A stretch of DNA of 63,991 bases, the filler included, from Sphacelaria rigidula (lineage: Eukaryota): NCBI GenBank assembly GCA_964200075.2. It is 10 parts of 10 records of this genome, joined end to end, with 100 filler letters (N's around TTAATTAATTAA, not from the genome) between each part and the next. Parts side by side here need not be neighbours in the genome. Positions count along the whole stretch, not along the records: positions 6,411 to 12,719 come from CAXNAA020020866.1; 9 more parts are not named here. One strand, 5' to 3'. This document shows, one piece after another, positions 6,311 to 38,561 of the stretch (positions within the stretch are counted from its first letter, which is position 1; the number at the start of each line of letters is the position of its first letter). The position numbers and the translations under genes were made by a program. The notes below the pieces were generated by a model that searched no databases, was not told the origin of the DNA, and was given only the letters and a program-made list of their open reading frames with translations.

Positions 6311-6410
6311 NNNNNNNNNNNNNNNNNNNNNNNNNNNNNNNNNNNNNNNNNNNNTTAATTAATTAANNNNNNNNNNNNNNNNNNNNNNNNNNNNNNNNNN
6401 NNNNNNNNNN
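6311..6410. other. Artificial scaffold linker (N44-TTAATTAATTAA-N44); also at 12720-12819, 19129-19228, 25538-25637, 31947-32046, 38356-38455, 44765-44864, 51174-51273, 57583-57682
   Basis: Identical 100-bp spacer with stop codons in all six frames. The flanked segments are all 6309 bp (first one 6310), consistent with size-sorted concatenated scaffolds. Confidence 0.97.
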
Positions 6411-7335
6411 GGGGCCCCCCCCCTACAGGGGGGGGAGGAGCCCGGCGGGTTTCCGGCCGGCCCCGGGAGATTGGGGGGGGGGTTGGGGGGGTATAAACCG
6501 TTTTCCAGTCTGTAAGGCCCCCTGACCGGTGCAGTGTTACGCCGGGGGTTAGTGTCACGTTCCCCACCACCACCCCCAAAATGAAGACGCGACGAAGTCT
6601 AGGAAGTGTACGGAAGGATATATAGCAACTAAAGCATTACACAGCTGTAGTATATGTCTAAAGCTACCTTCTGGTCGCAGTCTAGCTCAATTCCACCCAG
6701 TACAGCTCACAAACCAGCGATGGATACCCCTGAAAATAAGTTGTAACTATTCGTACAAGCAAAAACGTCATTTTTCAACATGCCCCTCCTTCACGCGACA
6801 GAAGATTACTCACTACTGACGAGCGTTACGAAGCTGGAACTCTACAGGCAGGTACTACTAGGCACTAGCCGTCGTTCAAGCCTTGGCAGACTTCAATTGA
6901 GTGTCGAAACAGTGCAATATCTTTAGTAGATGATCTCCACTTCACCCCGACTTCCAATTTTTAGACAAGGGTTTTGGCCGCCAAGAAGTGGAGGACTGGT
7001 GGGTACGCGTTTCATCTACACAGAGCAATCCGATTTGTGTCGATAGCTGCCGTGTGCGTCGAGATATTGCCATCTCGGTGACGGGTGTTATAACGTGTGA
7101 GGGGCAGCGCGAAAACCCATCGGGTCACATGTGATGTCCACATTGAGCAGGTAGTGATTGATTGCGCCGCGTCCACTTGGTTTGTAGCGTGGGGGGTATC
7201 TTCTCCCGCAAGCATACATGCAACAATTAACATTGCCCGCCAGTGGGAAAGACGTTCTAGACATGTGCTTGTCACTGTCGCTGGGGCGGCGCGTGAAGCT
7301 TGCTTACGGGATCGCCGCGCAAGGTGTAAACGACA

Positions 7336-7394
7336 CTTGATTGATTTATTGATTATCTCACATTAGCTGGTTGCTACATTCCAGCCCGTGGTCA
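7336..7394 (-). mobile_element. 3' end of (CAAT)n-tailed retroposon; a second degenerate copy at ~7600-7647
   Basis: Reverse complement tgaccacgggctgg...ccagctaatgtgagataatcaataaatcaatc, similar to 13104-13160 and 39764-39840. Confidence 0.6.
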
Positions 7395-8659
7395 GGAGCA
7401 GCAAAAATAGAACAGAATAATAAAAACAAAAACAAAAAAGAATGAACAGAAAAAGACAAAAGCAACGGCCTCAGAAAAGAAAGAAAGGGGGCAGCGATAA
7501 CAACAAAAAAACAACAACACCACCACCACCACCAAGCAACAACAACAAAATAACGACAAACAAACAAACACGAACACAAGCACAAGCAACACAAAAAGAG
7601 GATGATCGCGCATTACGTAGCTGACTGCAACATTCCAGCTCGTGATCAGAGACAAAAAGGAGAAAAATGAAAAAAAAAAATGACAGAAAAGAAACACTCG
7701 CGGTCTGCCGATTCCTTGTGTCGTCAGTGATACTGTAAGCTGTCGGAAACAAAAGAGAGATGCCACGGAAACTGCTTCAGGGTTTGCTGCGAAGCACACG
7801 TAGTCACATCGACTGTGCGGTGTGATGGGGACCGAAGTTTGGTGGGCAATAATGAAGGGTTAGGGACGGAAAACATCATCTAATGTTCCTCCAGCGTGCA
7901 GCACTTGGAACATGTGTTCTGCCACATGGAGGATGGATTACGTGTTCCATCGTCATCACGTACCCGCCCCCCCCCACCATGACCACAGAACATATACACA
8001 TCGGACCCCAGAAATTCGGTCATCAGATTTCAATCTTGTATGGCATGCAGAAACTGGTGATAGCTATCGGTACGCGAAGGAATGCAGGCACATTTTTAAG
8101 AAAATGGTCTACATATATGAAGATTGTAATAAACCGACTTATCATTGTCAATGAAAACCGTTGTCCTCAATTTTCACGATCGGTTGTTATCACACCAAAT
8201 ATTCGTGGCGGTTCGCCCGCTGTGCAGAGCGCTTTGAACGCCGCCTCACGAATGGAGTCCACGCGCGTGTAGTGGTCGTGTTGCACAGTATTCCATAAGG
8301 TTCTCTCCAACACCACGTCTTGATCATCATTTTCGCTTTATTAGTCGTTCGTTCCACTAGTATCACGCAATGTCTTGAGATACAACCGGCTATTCTCCCA
8401 GGGGTGTCGCCGGACGACCCGCCGTAGACGTCTGCACACAAGGGCGCACTGCATCAGGCACTCTACAACGTCCCCATCAACCCTATGCACGGGTTATAAC
8501 TTCCGTCTGCAGAAGATAACTCCCACGGTTACTTATATACCTATGCAACTCATCTGCAAGAAACATGTCTACGACTTTCGACTCAGGTGCAATCAAAACG
8601 CGAATTCGTCGTCGTGGTCTTTGCCCGCTTCCAATGCCGAATCCTCTTCCTCTGAGTCG

Positions 8660-10471
8660 CTACACGGAGTCCGAATCTCCAAGCCAGATCCCGGCTGGAT
8701 GCTTCGATCCGCCCTCTGGCGGACCATCTAGACCGCCGTCGCAACAACTGCGACTGATATGATCTGGTCCCGGATCCGATTTCCCTCCCGCTACCCTCGC
8801 CATCCTCTCGCTATCTCGTCGGCAGCACTCCTCACCACGGCTACTATCAACACCTGCCCCCGGGGCCTTCCTCGCTCCATTCGCCTGCCCCCCGCCACGC
8901 AACGCCGCTGACCCGCCCCTTCCACGGTTGGCCGTGGATCCGCCCCTCCCCTTACGACGTCGGCGGGACGTATCGACACATCCTCCGACGGAATCACCTG
9001 TAGCGTCGGTCGCTGGGTCAGGGGGTGGCGGCAAAAAGCAGCGGCCCTGGCAACCGCAGCTCAACGTACAATTCCCCAAACATCTGCAATCTCGGCAACG
9101 GTGACGTCTTTGCCCCGCCCTTTCCGGCTTGCACGCGCATCTCAGGGTTCGCACAATCCCGGATATATCGACATACTTGTGGCTTGACAAGTATACCGCT
9201 ATGTTGTCCCGTGTAAGCTCCACCGCCCCTCTCCTCGCCGCCTTTACCCCACCCTTGTGGTGAGTCTTTTTTTCTGGTTCAACCCCCCATCCGCGCCCGT
9301 TGAAGTTCACTGTGGGCATGCTCATCCCATGGTCCCCCCCCCAGTATTCCGATACTGCGTCGGTTCTATCCACGTGCTTCTGGCAGGCGTCCAAGTCCGG
9401 GCAGCACCGGGAAGGCATGTGCTCATGTACTGTGGTGATGCACAGACGAATCTTGTTCACGAAAGACTCCAGATTCTGCCCTGTCGTGGTGAAGAGATGT
9501 CTAGGATCCGCGGCGACTCGCGCAAATGCGTTTTCGTACCTGAAGAAAAAAATCATGGCCAGTAGCTTGACCACCTCGTCCACCTCCACCCTCGCCTTAC
9601 CCTCGTCGATCACCACTATCGCTTTCGTTGACAGATTCGGCGTTCTCAGTGCCTTTAGAACGAATTCCCACGTGTTGGGGAAGGGAACCCCGGATACACG
9701 CGGCAGGAAGTCGTAGCCCGCCAATAGAAAGGTGAAAACGAAGAGCGCCACCTTTACAGGATGCGTCAGCCAATCATACAGTCCGTCGGGAGGCCACGCA
9801 CTTTCGCTCCCGTCCCTCGCAGTCACGATGCCGCTGTACACCCTGTTCACCAGTATGTACCGAGCGCCTCCGTTCACAATGCGTCTGACAGCTACCTGCA
9901 CCGCGTTGGAGCCTTGTGGCTCAATATGCCCACAGGACATGGCCAAAAGGACAAGTATATACTGATCAGTATCAGTGGAAGTCACGAGCCACATCTTCAA
10001 ATGCTTCTGAAATAACGTCCCGGAGTGAAAGATGAAGTGCACTGCGGACATCTCCCCCTCACCTATGCCGGGTCCAACTGCGCTACGGATGCTCCGGTCA
10101 GGCCCCTTGCCATCACGCCACCACAACAGATGAAGTTGCAAGTCACCAATTGAACGGTGCCCCCCCCCACACACACGTGGTGAACATGGTTCTGCTGCCG
10201 CCGCTATGTCCACGCTCCCGCTCTCTGATGACGCCGCGAGAGACGAAGGTGGAGTCGTCCGGACCCCCCCGTCGGCGCCGACACCAGCGCGTGGCGCCCT
10301 CCTCGCCGCCGCCGCCGCCGCCTCACCTGTTCCCCTGCCTGTCACCACCTCAAGATATGTCCGCGGGGGCGCCCTTGCCAGATCGCTGCAGTCGACACCT
10401 CCGCCGGCCACAGCTGTTGCCACCCGCGGCACCGCCGTTCCCCCCCGACCGATGCCGCCGCTGAATTGCAC
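8660..10471 (-). CDS. XPG/FEN/XRN-like 5' nuclease plus C-terminal CXC (9 Cys) finger; AcademX-like transposon protein, probably partial or degenerate
   Basis: Intronless 603-aa ORF with GIGEGEM, VTSTDTD, FLLAGYDFLP, CPDLDACQKHVDR..YW..GRGW and CACKP...CRDCRC..CTLSCGC...C motifs. Confidence 0.7.
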   Translation of the reverse strand: MQFSGGIGRGGTAVPRVATAVAGGGVDCSDLARAPPRTYLEVVTGRGTGEAAAAAARRAPRAGVGADGGVRTTPPSSLAASSESGSVDIAAAAEPCSPRVCGGGHRSIGDLQLHLLWWRDGKGPDRSIRSAVGPGIGEGEMSAVHFIFHSGTLFQKHLKMWLVTSTDTDQYILVLLAMSCGHIEPQGSNAVQVAVRRIVNGGARYILVNRVYSGIVTARDGSESAWPPDGLYDWLTHPVKVALFVFTFLLAGYDFLPRVSGVPFPNTWEFVLKALRTPNLSTKAIVVIDEGKARVEVDEVVKLLAMIFFFRYENAFARVAADPRHLFTTTGQNLESFVNKIRLCITTVHEHMPSRCCPDLDACQKHVDRTDAVSEYWGGDHGMSMPTVNFNGRGWGVEPEKKTHHKGGVKAARRGAVELTRDNIAVYLSSHKYVDISGIVRTLRCACKPERAGQRRHRCRDCRCLGNCTLSCGCQGRCFLPPPPDPATDATGDSVGGCVDTSRRRRKGRGGSTANRGRGGSAALRGGGQANGARKAPGAGVDSSRGEECCRRDSERMARVAGGKSDPGPDHISRSCCDGGLDGPPEGGSKHPAGIWLGDSDSV

Positions 10472-11048
10472 CCGCTGGCCCCCATCGAAACACTATCGCC
10501 GCAACCACTCGCACACGACGCCTTTGCCGCCGTTTCCGTGTCCACCGCCCCCCCCGGCAGCTCGCCCATCATCACTGTCGCATCCCACTGCTGGGCCCCA
10601 CCCCCCTCTGTGCGTCCCAGAGCATCGGTGCGTCCCGTCGCGTATGCCATAATCGCCGCCGGTGTCGCGGCCCCTCCTTCGCCCGGTACTGTGCTGCAAC
10701 GCCGCCTGCTGTTGTTCATGCCACGCTCCCCATACGCTGTCAACCTCCGGCTTATTCGTCACGATTCTCTTCCGCCTCGATGCACGTACGTCAGCATGTG
10801 GTGGTGTGCCCCTGCCGGAGTTGGGCGGTGTACGTCTTTTCTTGGCCTTGGCCGATGGAGTTGAATTTTTTACCTCCGGGGCTTCACCACCGGCAGCTAT
10901 CCCGATTTTACGGGGGGTGTTACCCACTTCCCTGAGAGGTACTGTCGGCGGATTCCGTGGTAACACCTCCCGTATATTGTTTTATGAGGCCGAGGTGATG
11001 GAGACATCACGAGTCGCGCCTTCCCCGGCCGATCGAAATTTGAAGTTG

Positions 11049-11627
11049 CTACCTTGTGCACGGATGGCTATTGCACCCCTCCAACCCCTGCTTTTCTACA
11101 GATGCGCCATCACTGGACGCGAAGGATGTCTCCGGCGCACTGAACAGGACAGTCGCCGGATCTTTTCCGTAGGAACGGGGGCTCAGCCACTTTTGCGGTT
11201 TGACTCGTTCGCCGGTGTGACCCTCGGCGATGTCCCTCACATTTTCCACCGGTGTTGCACATTCGGAGTGCGTCAGGGGAGATCTACTTTCAACCGCGGA
11301 TGTGGCATGTGTCGGTCGGGATGGAGGCGACAGTGGTGCAGACACGTCATCACCTGCCCGGAATAGACGGGAAAATGATAGATTGACGCAACGTATCAGT
11401 CGTGCAGTCTCATTTGTTTTTATATTGCACAAAACACGGGCTCGTGTGAAATGATGATATCCTGGAACGTATCCGCAATTTAGTTCAAATATCTCAGTCA
11501 TAAGCGGGAACAAGAGGAAATCAGTCAGATGAGCTGGGTCTTCAGCACCTCTATTTCGCACGGTAATAGTGCACGAGGGATATCGGGGTGCTCTTACCTC
11601 GAGGCCGATTGCGGTGCCGTATCTCAC
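11049..11627 (-). pseudogene. Unknown 192-aa ORF upstream of the nuclease ORF; possibly a disrupted part of the same element
   Basis: Same strand, intronless, about 0.6 kb upstream; no motif recognised with confidence. Confidence 0.3.
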
Positions 11628-11969
11628 GTTCGGTCTGCCCCGGCTGGCGTCTCAAAAGTGCTCCAGACGTTGCACTCCAACTGTGAGTCTTGGGGACCTT
11701 CCACATCTACGGTCAGCAAATGCGCGGGGGAATGGGTGCGTATAGGATATTATTACAGATGTCTTTAATCGTGCGGTTGACGTGCTGTACTGTCCAACGA
11801 TAACGGGGTTTTGATTGCCGCGCCATCTAATGTCATGATCTTGCATGTGATCGTCGTACTGATGTACTGTCCAAGTTCACAACTCGAAATCTGTGTCTTT
11901 TATAAGTCGGACAATCTCGCTCCACGTAGGGGGTCGTCCGAACCCGAGCGCAGTATCCAAACATGCCAT

Positions 11970-12380
11970 CGATGCGCAATAAGAAGGCGCCAAGTGGGAT
12001 CAAAACTTTCCTTCATGGCGTACCTAACCCGCAGAATCACACATGACCCACGGCCGCATGTCGCCCATCGTGCAAGACCGTCATGTAGTACAGTACGTGC
12101 TGTTTCTTCCCGCACTCGGCGCTGGTCATACCCGAATATTGCACTGCACAGGCTGTACAATACATGCGCAATAAAAAGACACCAGGTGATATGAATACCT
12201 TCCTTCATGGAGTACCTAACCCGCAGAATTACACATGATCCACGGCCGCATGTCGCTCATCTTGAATGCGGGGGGTTTCGATAAGACCGTCACACAACTA
12301 CAACGGTATTGTACATACTGTTTCTTCCCGCACTCGGCGCTGGTTACACCCGAGCATTGCACTTCGCGGGCTGTACAACA
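11970..12380. repeat. Tandem duplication, period about 192 bp
   Basis: ttccttcatgg(c/a)gtacctaacccgcagaat(c/t)acacatga at 12008 and 12200; gcgcaataa at 11974 and 12166. Confidence 0.85.
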
Positions 12381-13090
12381 CTCTGTGCTGCACTACACTT
12401 NNNNNNNNNNCTTCACTCAACAAAGTTATGCGATTCTGTGCTACACTAGGGTGCATGATGTTGTGCTGCACGCGTTTGTACTGTACTGGGGTGACCACCT
12501 TGTAGAGCACCAATGGGGCTCTCTACTGCACCCATGTGCTGGTGCGGAGCAAAGTTGAAAAAAAATTCAACGTCACTCACGTCGTTAATTTTTAGACAGC
12601 GATGGATTTCAGTGAAACCTTTTGCAACAGAAAGTTTGCGTTGTCTACATGGTGAAACATTCCTCTGTATCTCTCCTGGTCGTGTAGGTCGAGCACCATG
12701 TCCTCCCATGACACCGGAGNNNNNNNNNNNNNNNNNNNNNNNNNNNNNNNNNNNNNNNNNNNNTTAATTAATTAANNNNNNNNNNNNNNNNNNNNNNNNN
12801 NNNNNNNNNNNNNNNNNNNTGGGCAATCAGGCCGAAGAAATCGTGAATTTGGTGATTTTGAGTCGTGATGATTTATCCTAACCGTGCAATATTTTCCTTT
12901 CCACGGTCTTTTGTTTCCTATGACTGAGTATGAGTTTGGTTGTGCACAAGACCTTGTACGCCGAAGCCGTGTGGCAGAGATCGGTCATTTTTTTTTTTTG
13001 TACCTCACGTCTCAATTTACAGTGTTGTTCTGTTATACTTTTTCTGTTTTTTTTTTCTTTTCAGCGAGAGTGTCAGTTTCGTTCTGTCTC

Positions 13091-21930: not shown

Positions 21931-22771
21931 GCTCGTACTGCGGGTGTCAGCCTGAAGCGGTTGCCAACTAATTTTCGTCAGTGCCCGTAGAAAGCATAGC
22001 CAATAGCTCCGTATCATTTTGACACTGCTGTACTCGTATTCCCGACCCCCTATCCCCCCTGTCGGTGAAGAGGTGTTTTTGTCTCCCGAAGAAAGAAGGA
22101 TCCCCAACTGCAGGATCTGTCTACATGTGCAAAATATGAGTTGATCTGAAGGAGAGGGAGACATGGTTGTCAAGAGCTTGAACCACTCCCTTTTGTCGTA
22201 ATGGCGCTTGAATTGCATTCCGCAGTGGTCGTGGCAGCCGGTAGTGTTGCTGCTGCTACATTGACTCGTGCTATCATTCTCAAGCTTGATTGTATCAGTT
22301 AACCTCGGCGTGTCGGCCGGTAACATTCCGTCACTTATTTTCATCATTTTTTTGTGCTTGGCGTTGTACTTGAATATCCTACTCCTACGGTTGCGGCAAC
22401 TGCCGGAAGAAGATGATCATGATGTATAATATTTCATCGTTTTCGTCAACGGTTTGTCCGTTTTAATCACTGAATGCGCCGCGATTTTTCTTGCACCAAC
22501 CTCACCGCAGGGTCCCTCTTTTTTTTTCGGCTTGGCGCGACGTGGGGAGTGAAAGGGAGAGCACGGCTGGGCATATTGGTTCACCTCGGCCGTCTTCGAC
22601 CCCCACACGCCGTTCCCCTGGTACAGTAGTGAGAGACACGCTTGTGTTCGCTGTGTGGAGAGTCCACTTTCATCCCGGTGTTTAGTGTCTGAAGAACAGC
22701 TGGACTAGCCCTTCCACAGTGGTGGAGGGACAGCAGCAGCTAGGGGTAAGAATAGGGATAGGACAGCAATT

Positions 22772-24196
22772 ATGTCGTATACAGGGCCTCGAGACGGGCT
22801 GATATCAGGAATGGATCAACTCGAAACTCTCGCCCCGACCGACGACAACGATTCCACCACTATGGATACCACCATGGACGCGGCTACCGCTGCAGACACT
22901 GCTACCACTGAGGATACCGGTGAGACTAAAGATCGTGCCCGTATTGACACCCATGCTGGCGGTAACGCCTCCTCTCATCCCTCGAATGTTTGGGCTGGCC
23001 GTGAAAGTACCACCAGCATGCCCCAAACGGCCGTATCCGTATCGACATCAGGAACAACAACAGACAATGTTTCAGGGAATCTTTGGGCTGTCGAACGCGA
23101 CGAGGATGGTTTCGTCACCCCAACGCCGATCTCAAGCTCATCAAGAGGCGCAACGGCAAAGCGAACCGTTCGGACGGCCGGCAGTCCAAGGGCAACAGTG
23201 ACGCCAAGGGCTACACGAGCGCCAGCAGCGATACAAGCGGCAACGGGTATGCCGACGCCGACGGGTATACAAACTCCGACGGGTATACGAACGCCTACAG
23301 CAATACAATCGCATATGCGGCAATCTTCCACTTCTACCATACTGTCCTGGAAGAACAGCAGCGGTAGCCTCGGTACTCCTTCTGGCGGGGGTCATCATGA
23401 TGACGGTGGGAACGGTAGTAGTAGTGCTGGCGGTGTAGGAGATGGCGGCAGTGGGCGACGCAGCAGCACGGGTGGCTTTCGAGGAGTTCCGAGCAGAACC
23501 GGGTTCGGGTTTAATCAAAATCGGTACCCTCCACCACCCGCTGCAGCGCCCGCACCAGGTGGGCTTCCCAAGCATGAACGGCCGGAAGACAACCCGGATC
23601 ACTTTGACGACACCAGTAGCGAGTACTCCGTGATTTCCACGCCACAGGATGAACGCCGGAACAGTCCGGGACACGATCGTCGGAAATCGCTCGGAATGTT
23701 CTCGGAAAGTTTCCGGGGCGATCTCCGGAGGAGTCCCAGGGGTGATCGTCGGTACAGTCCTGAGTTCAATCGTCGGAGATCGATGGGAATGATGTCAGAT
23801 CACTATCGGAATGATTCTCGGGGCAGTCCTCGGATCGGTTCTCGGGGGTTGTTCTCCAGCCTCAGTACCAGAGAATCGCCGACTCGCTCATCGGGCAGGA
23901 CTTCTCCACGTTGGCCTGGTGGAACTATTTCGAGAACCAACAGCCCGGGCTCGCCATCGGATCGCGAGAGCAGCCGGATTCTCGTAGATCACAACCGGAT
24001 TATGGTGGCATGTCGGGTTAGGCCGAGGGATGACGGGGGCGACAATAGCAAGGCGCAGTCTGTGTGTGTGAGTGTCGAGGATGATGCAAAGACGGTGGCG
24101 TGGGCAGGAGATAGGGGTGACGAGGCCAACGCGCGGCATTTCACGTTTGACTATGCAGCCGGAGAGAACGTTGGTCAAGAAGAGCTATTCGACCGG
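22772..24196 (+). CDS. Kinesin (kinesin-12/KIF15-like), exon 1: long disordered N-terminus plus start of motor domain
   Basis: RIMVACRVRP...HFTFDYAAGENVGQEELFDR; donor CGG|GTGAGA, phase 0. Confidence 0.9.
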
Positions 24197-24528
24197 GTGA
24201 GATACGCAGACACGTCGACGGTCGCGTGAGTATATCTATATATATATAGATAGATATATATATAGATTTCTCGGACCGTCACACGATGTTTCCTTGCTTC
24301 CTTCTTGTTATTGTTTAGTGTGTCCTCTGTTGTTTTCTGTTTTCTTATGTCCGCTGTTTTTTGCTGTTTATCCCTCTTGTACTCGGGTAATTTCCTGTTG
24401 TTATTTCTTGCGCAGTGGAAAACCGACACCCCCGAACTTTAGGTACCTTATGCCATCCTTGAAAGATCTCACCACCCTATCGCTCTGATCGTCGCGCGCT
24501 CAACCTCATGGCATCCTGAAACATCCAG

Positions 24529-32116: not shown

Positions 32117-33800
32117 ACGGTGAATAACCAACGATTGAACGCTGTCACCAAAATTGCCAGGCTGCCACTTTCATGGGTTGATGGAATTATTGACTCTCTT
32201 GGCGGGGGCAAGGTGCATTTCAACGTGTAATTTACCGTGCGACTGATGGATTGCCCAAATACCATATGTACCTTGATGATGCAGGGTGCCACGACTGCAC
32301 ACCGGCCAAACACGTCGAGCACCTGGCATCATTCTTTAATCGGTTTGTACAACACGATTTGAAACTCTCCCCCTCGGAATCCCGCATCGGCGCCACGAAG
32401 ATTGAGTTCTTGGGCCATTGCATCACCCCTGAAGGTCGTAGGAGCCCAAACCTAGACAAGGTCGCCGCACTCGCCGATATGCCCATGCCAAGGGGCATTT
32501 CTCAACTGCGTTCCTTGTTGGGAGGTCTCAGCTACTACAGACAGTACTTGCCAAACCTTGCCCAAACGCTACAACCTCTCACCACCCTAGACAAAAAAGG
32601 GGTGAGATTTGTCTTCACATCGGAAATGGAAAAAACCGTCCGCCGTCTTCTTGACACCCTTTCGCGCGCCGATTCTCGTCTTCCCCGACTGGTCGGAAGC
32701 GGAATACGGTTCCCGCCCTTTCCATCTCGACACAGATTCTTTCATAATTGGGTTCTGCACATTAGAACAGGAGCAAGACGATTCTACTGCTCGTCCCATT
32801 GGATACCTAATCGCGCCACTTTTCCAAATGAACAGAATTGGTCTGTCATGGAACAAGAGGCCGGCGCAGTTGTCTGGGGCGTGCGACGTCTGCGTCATTA
32901 TTTGTATGACATCCCGTGTGTGACTTACACGGATTATAAGTCTTTGGAAAGCCTCGCCAAAATGGCGGAACACAACGCTAGGGTACAACGCTGGTTCGAA
33001 ACCCTGTCGTCTTACAGCTTCCAGTTGAAATATCGCACAGGCCCGCAAAATGCAAACGCCGACTTACTGTCACACTTGCCCACACCGGCTCAACCTATCG
33101 ATGAATCCCCCATGGGACGTATCACCGATGCCACGAAAGACATTGTATTTCTCATCATCAGGAATGGACGGTCGAGAGTGCGGACCCCTGGAACGCGTTG
33201 AGGTAGATAGGATTTCGGGCCATCAACTGGTGCACCGTCGTGGTGGTAAGATAGCGATAATGTATCAAACACATTGGAAGGGTATCATGCGTGTGACATA
33301 GGAGAGTGAAGCTGATTTGCGTCATTTTCGTCCGGGGATATTGCTGTACTGGGTAGGAGATGGCGTCCAACACCGCCCGTTGAATAAATAAGCGATATCG
33401 GTCTATGCGCAAGGGAGCTGCCGCTCGGGAACTGGCACGTGAGCACTCAGCGCGGTTTGTTGTATCAGGCTTTAGCCTTCTTTGGCGTTTACAATACATG
33501 CAGTCTTTTGACGGACAACGCTTGCCGAAGAAGGCGTACTTTTGGTGTAACGCCTTTGATTCACTGTGGTGGTTAGGTAAGATTCATGTGGTCGACCCTG
33601 CATCTGACAACTCCTACTTTATCCCCTTCCTCGATGATCCGGGCCCCCTTAAGATTTGCTTGGATGATGCCTACTAGACCGAGGTGCCGACCGCCCGCCG
33701 GGGATCCTGGTGACTCCAACGACACGACCAAGGCGATCTCGACACAGCCGTTCTACGCAACACGGACACCACTTGGGATGCAGAAGACTCATGATGCCGC
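32117..33800 (+). mobile_element. Degenerate Ty3/Gypsy pol (RT, RNase H, chromo-like C-terminus; integrase core absent)
   Basis: YLDD, FLGHCITPEG, QLRSLLGGLSYYRQY, EAGAVVWGV, TDYKSL, NANADLLS, then VDRISGHQLV..YQTHWKG; frameshifts and stops. Confidence 0.9.
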
Positions 33801-36239: not shown

Positions 36240-38355
36240 GTTGCGTGCAGCTATGGCAACGCGCGAGAAAGTAGGTGATGGCGATGCAGGCGAAGAGGTG
36301 AAGTTTAAGTTTATCGAGCTTATGCCTGCAGGATCGCTGAAAGCCCCAGAGTTAGGCATTTTAGCGACAATGCGTCCCGACGTTTTCATCAGAAATACGT
36401 CGAGTATGAAGAGGCGGTCAAAATGAACAACAAATGACGTAGCATGCAGGCGTGTTACTTACTGACTGTTACTGAACTGGTGCCGAAGCACATCCGTGCA
36501 TGTTTGTAATGCACGATTTTTGACGGATCCGTCCTTGACGAAGATGATCTCAAGGAGGCACTTGGCCGACACGCGAAATACTGGCAGGATGAAGAGATTG
36601 ATCCTTCAGTTGCTGCTGCTGGTGTGCGGAAAGCGTTGGCGGCCGGCAACGAGCAAACTGCAATGGGAAGAGTAGAACGGAAGTGGGGTGCCCTGGAGGA
36701 ATTTTTGGCGCAGAATGCTAGCGCTGAGCGTGCGTTCCGTGATGATGCAGATCTCAAACCAGGACCCGCTCAAATCATACCACGGGAAATGTTGAATGGA
36801 CTGACCCCCCCCCGAATTCAAAACTAAAGTCCTTAACATGTTGAACATGAAGGGGGGGTGGAAGGAGGACCCTGGGCTTGTGTTTAACACGGCTTGGGAA
36901 GCAGCCGAGGCATGGAAGACGGTGGAAGCGGCGGATAAGCTGCGCCGTCAGCAGCCGCAGCTGAAACAAAAGGGCGGCAGCGGGACCTCCGAATCCAAGA
37001 GCGAACCGAATGGTGGAAAAACAGCGACCGCTGGCAGTGAGACTGCCAGTTCCAGGGAATATGGGGAACCGGGCGCAAGCTATGCAGATTGTTTCTCATG
37101 GTGAGACAAGGGCCATTTCCGGAAGGATTTGCAAGCAGCAAGGCCAGGCTGCTACTCCACAACATACTACAGGTGGGCAGACGAAGGCCGGCGACACGCA
37201 GCAGCAACAACAACAGCCGCTGTCGCAGGGCCCTGGACAGGTGCCTCGCGGAGGGGGCACGAGTCGGGCCCCTACAAGGGCTGTCTTTTCAGCCGATGGA
37301 CAAAGTGCTCCCAGCGGGGGGCGACGTTGCCACCAGAACCGGTCGCTTCTACTGGTGGCGTGCAGCAGACCATCTCATCGCACTCTTTCCCGGGTTCAAA
37401 ATCTGAGGCGGTGCCAGCATGGAGATCGCTCTAAGCGGGTGAGGTGTCAGGTTTTCGATCTGAGGGTCTGCAAGTAGATAACAAGGAAACGTGGTGTCGT
37501 GCCGACTTGTCTGTCCCGAGTGCAGGGGCACAGACTGTTTGTCCGGTCAAGGCTATTTTAGACTCGGGATCTGGGCATACGACCATGTCAGTGGGTGTAG
37601 CGGCGAATTTGCAAGCTATGGTTCCAGATGTTCGAGTGGTCACACCGATGGTTAATGAACAGCTGATGACACCGGCTAACGGCAATATTGAGCGCGTGAA
37701 GCAGAAAACTTGCCCTGTCCGAACCGCTTTACACACCAGCTTGGGACCGGTTGTGCTGGACCCATGTTCATATGCGGTCATGCCGGGTACAGATGATGTG
37801 ATCATCATGGGGAGCCCTACGCTGGAGGCGCTGGGCATTGACGTGTACACTAGCTTACGTGCCTGTGCACGTGCAAGAAACACTTCGGTGCGAGGTGTAA
37901 ACACGCCTGATTTCACGGACTGTCGGCGTGTCAGTACCGCGGTTGACGCTTTACAGCAACCAGGAGGCCGGGCGGAGCCCGTTTATTCCTCAGTCGAGCG
38001 GTTGTTGTCGAGAAGTCCGGCGATGAGCATATCCCCGGAACAAGAGCTTGCTGAGCTTGATGTTGCGCCGGAGGAGACAGTACAAGCCGCCGCGGATGAC
38101 GGTATGTCGGAGAGCGACGTGAGCCAAATTCGTGAGCCTGTACGGAATAGAGCGAGCATTTCTAGGCGAGTGCTGCATGGTTATCCGCCTGCTCGCGTCG
38201 AGCCCTTGAAGGTGAAATTCAAAGCTGTTGCTGTGGAGGCAAAGGCTCGGCCGAGGGCGTACTTTCCGGTCGGGATGGCGTGGTTGGCACGCTGCATCGC
38301 AACATTGGTGGCGCTCGGGCTCGTGTACTGCAGTTTGCAGGTAGAGCGGGCGACA
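36240..38355 (+). mobile_element. Degenerate Ty3/Gypsy gag-protease and pre-RT region
   Basis: Broken CCHC-like knuckle near 37090-37130; aspartic protease AILDSGSGHT and DVIIMGSPTL; PPARVEPLKV..KARPRAY. Confidence 0.8.
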
Positions 38356-38561
38356 NNNNNNNNNNNNNNNNNNNNNNNNNNNNNNNNNNNNNNNNNNNNT
38401 TAATTAATTAANNNNNNNNNNNNNNNNNNNNNNNNNNNNNNNNNNNNNNNNNNNNAAGCACTGTTTTAGGCTTGAGCCTCATCTCGAAGTTAAACCTCAA
38501 TTCTCACAATTTGTTGTTCTTATATATATATATATATATATATGTATCTACGCCAAAGTAT

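Follow-up and report, generated by a model that had tools for sequence, protein, structure and literature searches.

The stretch of DNA analysed here (the window; 63,991 nucleotides of the Sphacelaria rigidula assembly GCA_964200075.2) contains an uninterrupted reading frame in which nuclease-like acidic motifs precede a cluster of cysteines. A sequence-only reading had proposed that this frame is the C-terminal half of a decayed AcademX-type transposon protein; we asked whether such a transposon exists in this genome, and how much of it the locus retains. AcademX proteins combine, in order, a transposase, a PIN nuclease and a C-terminal Cys8 finger, and are known from animals and one red alga; the second enzyme of Academ elements has been proposed to set the length of the target-site duplication (TSD). 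AcademX is reportedly a lineage of the Academ superfamily, a division said to go back to Kapitonov and Jurka in 2010 and Kojima in 2020 (Mob DNA 11:15). Our analysis indicates that the locus is very probably a dead copy, with an internal deletion, of a brown-algal DNA transposon that exists in many copies and is likely AcademX-type. In its full form this transposon likely encodes a single spliced protein of predicted transposase, nuclease predicted to be XRN-like, finger and tail.

Conserved motifs in the open reading frame

The ORF spans 610 amino acids from stop to stop (8660-10492, minus strand), and its translation contains PDLDACQKHVDR. Translation and a 50-row alignment confirmed the motifs previously quoted: GEGE at 10063-10052, STDTD at 9979-9965 and AGYDF at 9721-9707, followed by YW starting at 9346, GW at 9292 and nine cysteines within 9139-9038. 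Five acidic residues are conserved (in 24/30, 24/29, 31/33, 31/34 and 36/44 of the homologs aligned), as are the cysteines, all but the sixth (13/22) of the nine being kept in at least 91%; because these residues are conserved across homologs, the motifs are not chance. The cysteine cluster is likely a zinc finger; the proposed CXC/TCR identity comes from a weak Atlas lead and had no Pfam TCR match.

One motif had been misjudged. Base 9714 is G in 17 of the 18 sister loci compared (some of which overlap on the same contig), giving GCDF, which is also found in 37 of 44 homologs; GYDF is thus a mutation private to the window copy, and we rejected it as an XRN signature.

The surroundings of the ORF also need to be read with care, since the window joins ten unrelated contigs of ~6.3 kb through N-linkers with TTAATTAATTAA (6311-6410, 12720-12819 and then every ~6409 bases). 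The transposon copy is confined to 6411-12719, and the other genes in the window, including the intron-rich host genes against which the ORF had been compared, are therefore not its neighbours.

A high-copy family with terminal repeats and target-site duplications

Searching the genome with the ORF, with 108 of 516 candidates scored, returned at least 127 matches at identities of 37-100%, many of them containing stops; a transposase search returned 141 matches. The locus is consequently not a single-copy conserved host or viral gene: it is high-copy, and its relatives carry a transposase, terminal inverted repeats (TIRs) and TSDs. Copy-to-copy similarity ends at window position 6532, at CAGTGTTACGCC, and the same word opens the opposite end in relatives. 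The 3' TIR of the window copy reads CAGTGTTACGCCGGGGG on the plus strand (6532-6548); its pattern has 162 exact occurrences, compared with 1 for a control. In an alignment of 29 5' ends and 41 3' ends, the TIRs are 15-17 bp long.

TSDs were counted in 16 elements whose two unlike ends lie on one contig and point towards each other. Three matches were excluded from the count: a second 3' end lying farther out in L057, a duplicate at a shifted position in L054 and, in L115, a 5' match that was weak (three mismatches). A perfect 4-bp TSD flanks 6 of the 16, and 8 have one with at most one mismatch; mismatched pairings gave 2/240 and 13/240, respectively. At 5 bp the counts are 1/16 perfect and 3/16 with at most one mismatch (null, 0/240 and 4/240), none of the 16 has a TSD of 6-10 bp, and no TSD was found for 5 of them.

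Six TIR-bounded elements of 6-8 kb (L033, L051 and L057-L060) carry the C-terminal half of the nuclease, but neither the transposase query nor the N-half query matched them; this sample is biased, most of the six having been retrieved through their nuclease match. An AGACGC word lies inside the ends, most often at +44 in 5' ends (9/29) and at +54 in 3' ends (8/41); the 10-bp offset is about one helical turn, a weak, post hoc observation that we did not use as evidence. One element that retains a perfect 4-bp TSD contains a reverse transcriptase ORF (L035:5406-7091; RVT_1, E 1.2e-15).

A probable transposase-nuclease fusion in fuller copies

What the window copy lacks is present in relatives. 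L039 and L042 contain a ~6-kb region comprising a zinc-ribbon-like region, an exon with the motif DNCD, a transposase-like exon (AGDEET, GDWH and LDERQE) and the N-terminal half of the nuclease (HAVD, YDN and KxHEQxxR); GDEET, GDWH and DERQE of the transposase are conserved. Matches of the transposase to DUF6589, which we take to be the Academ transposase, have E values of 5e-4, 1e-4 and 4.9e-6 at 19-26 bits, below the curated cut-off of 27, and 10 of 19 homologs carry a precomputed DUF6589 assignment. In the Atlas the transposase falls nearest DUF6589-containing clusters (0.96, 205 shared features; recognition low, 1578), and the ten best matches that have a family all belong to DUF6589's family or clan. 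No helicase Pfam match occurs in the scanned ORFs of the incomplete elements L031, L039 and L119. In one subfamily (L119:3673-6123 and L039:2837-4801) the transposase contains a low-complexity insert of ~300 amino acids with a weak match to the EsV-1-7 Cys motif (E 0.018-0.2).

The two enzymes appear to belong to one gene. L114 has both TIRs, the transposase and both nuclease halves; in Ectocarpus the proteins P0172 and P0173 carry transposase and nuclease in one chain, P0172 being 40% identical to the window ORF over 261 amino acids; and in L039 the intervening gap has a donor and an acceptor site at its edges. At the place of a 244-bp GT-AG intron upstream in the window copy (11354-11597, minus strand), contigs of runs X1 and X4, which we guess to be RNA and which come from one study, skip the 244 bases, a skip absent from X5 and X7, and none of the sequencing runs listed is recorded as RNA; this hints that family members, as distinct from the window copy, are transcribed and spliced. 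The earlier statement that introns are absent thus holds for the exon of the nuclease C-half and fails for the element.

A divergent family with ~38% amino acid identity (L031:1123-5737 and L032) has long open exons, with a transposase of 508 and a nuclease of 925 amino acids. Its two copies are 93-95% identical to each other and the family is perhaps younger; its ends were looked for and not found.

The nuclease is predicted to be closest to XRN

The C-terminal half of the nuclease (9284-10132, minus strand) runs from GEGE through DTD and G(C/Y)DFLP along a predicted long helix to YW..GW. An AlphaFold2 model of ORF residues 110-490, which covers this half only, had a pLDDT of 84 and a pTM of 0.86. 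Compared by VIA with 48,161 chains, it matched human XRN1 best (Z 11.4, rmsd 6.2, 250 residues aligned), followed by other XRNs at 9.4-10.1; XRN1/XRN2 structures scored Z 8.4-11.4 overall, EXO1 6.1, XPG 4.9, and GEN1 and FEN1 4.2, and the top 13 rows were all 5'-nuclease folds at an rmsd of 5-6 Å and 12-15% identity. The top 18 PDB rows shown by Foldseek were all XRN (best E 2.8e-3), and among viral proteins its top 21 rows were XRN-named or unnamed, with giant-virus XRNs best (E 1.2e-5). The half-domain is therefore predicted to have the PIN/FEN-like fold that had been suspected, and to lie closer to XRN than to XPG/FEN1.

The catalytic spacing agrees: 27 residues separate E from D and 85 separate D from D in the window copy. 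The corresponding distances are 28 and 84 for XRN1, but 19 and 52 for FEN1 (PMC5499597). The claim of XRN-like motif variants accordingly stands for fold and spacing, if not for GYDF. Fuller copies have seven acidic residues, five of which are present in the window copy, the two N-terminal Asp being confined to fuller copies. Sequence comparisons were less telling: a Pfam scan of the ORF and 50 homologs gave no XPG, XRN or TCR match, a genome search for XRN_N found 5 stretches on 4 contigs, none of them among the element copies, and PDB sequence searches returned nothing credible. An XRN exon of the host aligned with the nuclease profile (E 0.0025, probability 11.7%); a FEN1-like exon of the host did not. 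In the Atlas, the closest clusters consist of arthropod and cnidarian proteins without a name (0.91) that may belong to ordinary AcademX.

The window copy is an internally deleted, decaying derivative

Read on the minus strand, the window copy occupies 6532-12719 and would total ~6.5 kb, its 5' end lying ~313 bp past the contig break, where the sister copy L140 shows a 5' TIR. The element's 5' non-coding region includes three imperfect direct repeats of ~200 bp (11972-12381). Downstream of these come a short conserved 5' exon (11598-11706, upstream boundary approximate), the intron, and a remnant of the gene's N-terminal exon that contains stops (10689-11353). This remnant ends at a deletion junction (10688-10689): L039 and L042 have ~6 kb between the two bases, so that the transposase, together with the zinc-ribbon region and the N-terminal half of the nuclease, has been removed from an element whose full length we estimate at ~12.6 kb. 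The low-complexity linker between the nuclease halves follows (10133-10688); compared with the fuller copy L119, it loses the reading frame at runs of G, and the first residues of the ORF are therefore not in the family frame.

Beyond the nuclease C-half and the cysteine cluster (9038-9139) lies an acidic C-terminal tail (..SDSEEEDS..DDEFAF*; 8593-8664), which is out of frame in the window copy, as the sequence-only reading had suspected. A 2-bp deletion at ~8665 (8664-8666) causes the frameshift and an early stop at 8662-8660; the two bases are present in all five sister copies aligned, two of which stay in frame to ...DDEFAF*. The locus does hold the C-terminal half of a decayed copy, through the internal ~6-kb deletion and not the frameshift alone. 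Nearer the 3' TIR, a high-copy repeat that carries a short tandem tail is nested in the element (7337-7720, inner boundary approximate); it is common to the subfamily sisters, fixed in the subfamily and looks like the 3' end of a LINE or SINE, and gave 795 candidates, of which the 40 scored were 93-100% identical.

Two further contigs, whose identity to the window is 92-93%, have exactly this deletion junction, and because three contigs have it in common we conclude that the window copy is a non-autonomous derivative of ~6.5 kb that moved in trans. Its nearest copies form a star-like subfamily, ~4% from the root. Over two residue ranges of the nuclease, dN/dS was 0.72-0.78 between the window copy and its consensus and 0.14-0.15 between subfamily consensuses, a pattern that points to selection on the nuclease domain in the mobile lineage and near-neutral decay of the window copy since insertion. 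We rejected selection on the deleted form as a reading of the value for B1 vs B2 (0.34), which is inseparable from selection on full-length masters. With no transposase and without two of the seven catalytic acids, the window copy is to all appearances inactive by anatomy.

Classification, mechanism and alternative readings

The recovery, by aligning copies, of an upstream DUF6589-like transposase, TIRs and mostly 4-bp TSDs supports the AcademX-type reading, as do the PIN/FEN-like predicted fold and the high copy number. The element is probably AcademX-type by domain order, TIRs and TSD. It resembles AcademX in being a TIR element whose DUF6589-like transposase is fused to a PIN/FEN-fold nuclease and Cys-rich finger, and in its mostly 4-bp TSD and the lack of a helicase match in the scanned ORFs. 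It differs in its stramenopile host, in a nuclease whose predicted fold is nearer XRN than XPG/FEN1, and in some TSDs of 5 bp, outside the 3-4 bp given for AcademX, which encodes a nuclease (PMC10045372). It also differs in having a spliced gene and an estimated length of ~12.6 kb, against a mean of 5.6 kb for bivalve Academ elements (PMC10294476). AcademH, whose helicase is RecQ-like, also has a DUF6589-like transposase, and the two have TIRs in common. AcademH encodes a helicase and makes TSDs of 9-10 bp (PMC10045372), lengths found in none of our 16 pairs.

In the mechanism we favour, a DDE transposase would use the D of DNCD, the D of GDEET and the acidic residue of DERQE, a triad suggested by conservation only, to cut at the 15-17-bp TIRs, and would insert with a 4-nt stagger. 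The second nuclease would then, somewhat more probably than not, trim DNA 5' ends or flaps, either at the excised ends or in the product of strand transfer; DNA binding is the likely task of the Cys finger. The window copy encodes neither a transposase nor a complete nuclease site, and the deleted form was mobilised in trans.

The strongest challenge concerns this mechanism and the lineage label, not the transposon itself. The nuclease could be a 5'-3' exoribonuclease of XRN type that was captured independently. Its substrate would be RNA or RNA-DNA hybrids, such as R-loops formed at the element or RNAs involved in silencing; it would act in transposition or anti-silencing and be tied to a 4-5-bp stagger, and the brown-algal elements would then stand as a third lineage of Academ next to AcademH and AcademX. 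We hold this to be a tentative, rather unlikely reading. It draws on the ranking of XRN1/XRN2 above EXO1, XPG, GEN1 and FEN1, on the XRN rows that head both Foldseek lists, on the XRN1-like order and spacing of GEGE...DxD...D with seven acidic residues in fuller copies, and on the alignment to the host XRN exon. Set against the likeness to XRN1/XRN2 (Rat1; PDB 9e70, 2y35, 3pie and 5fir), the predicted best fold match, are the 12-16% identity, the lack of an XRN_N Pfam match, the fusion to a transposase and the low-complexity insert between the halves; moreover, the model covers the C-terminal half alone, and the extra helices of XRN inflate Z through aligned length. The FEN1/XPG/EXO1/GEN1 group is itself similar in its PIN/FEN-like fold, a GCD motif and a D..K..E...R segment past the second Asp, while differing in its lower Z (4.2-6.1) and shorter spacing. 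Also against this reading, the arthropod and cnidarian Atlas clusters may be ordinary AcademX, and the TSD length fits AcademX. Nor would an XRN fold fix the substrate, since yeast XRN1 also cuts single-stranded DNA (PMC5499597).

Two further readings would place the locus elsewhere. That the element, though a TIR transposon, belongs to some other DDE superfamily or to an unclassified one, its Academ likeness superficial, would accord with the sub-threshold DUF6589 scores and with the absence of any sequence link to non-algal proteins; we regard it as improbable given the agreement of the ten best family-bearing Atlas matches and an order of transposase, PIN nuclease and Cys finger that is also that of AcademX. 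The 4-bp TSD fits AcademX as well (PMC10045372). An origin in an endogenous giant virus, of which the locus would be a fragment with a viral XRN, or in a host gene that was domesticated, could account for the giant-virus fold matches, the long uninterrupted exon and an Ectocarpus homolog annotated as expressed. This is the least probable reading, largely refuted by the TIR/TSD pairs and contradicted by more than 100 decaying copies, spliceosomal introns, the near-neutral decay of the window copy and the lack of a relative in viral contigs.

Host range

All named homologs are from brown algae (Sphacelaria, Ectocarpus, Pylaiella, Scytosiphon, Laminaria and Ascophyllum), in keeping with the lineage first guessed for this DNA; 20 of the 150 representative matches listed were looked up, of which 6 were named, and the closest is 93% identical to a family transposase. 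Homology searches returned only brown-algal or unnamed proteins, and no animal or red-algal Academ sequence. Word-based scans, which miss distant relatives, found no relative of the transposase profile or the nuclease in viral contigs and none of the transposase profile in metagenome contigs. The parts of a 2025 curated Ectocarpus library that we searched (PMC12477816, text and supplementary files) list no Academ, although 51 DNA/Unknown families there could include the element, and a literature search for Academ in Ectocarpus gave an unrelated mention only.

The element thus extends Academ-type transposons to stramenopiles, with homologs in six brown-algal genera and none listed in the available parts of that library, and its ends, TSD and gene structure can now be used to annotate an abundant missed repeat. 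The window locus itself is a dead copy. For the family, an XRN-like version that goes with TSDs of 4-5 bp and with spliced transcripts makes the second enzyme's role in TSD length testable.

Elsewhere in the window, another contig holds the remnant of an LTR retrotransposon, with RT/RNase H and aspartic protease matches (32194-33201 and 37435-38403). A low-complexity ORF of 506 amino acids (22709-24229, plus strand) has no Pfam match, and its end resembles the beginning of kinesin motor domains.
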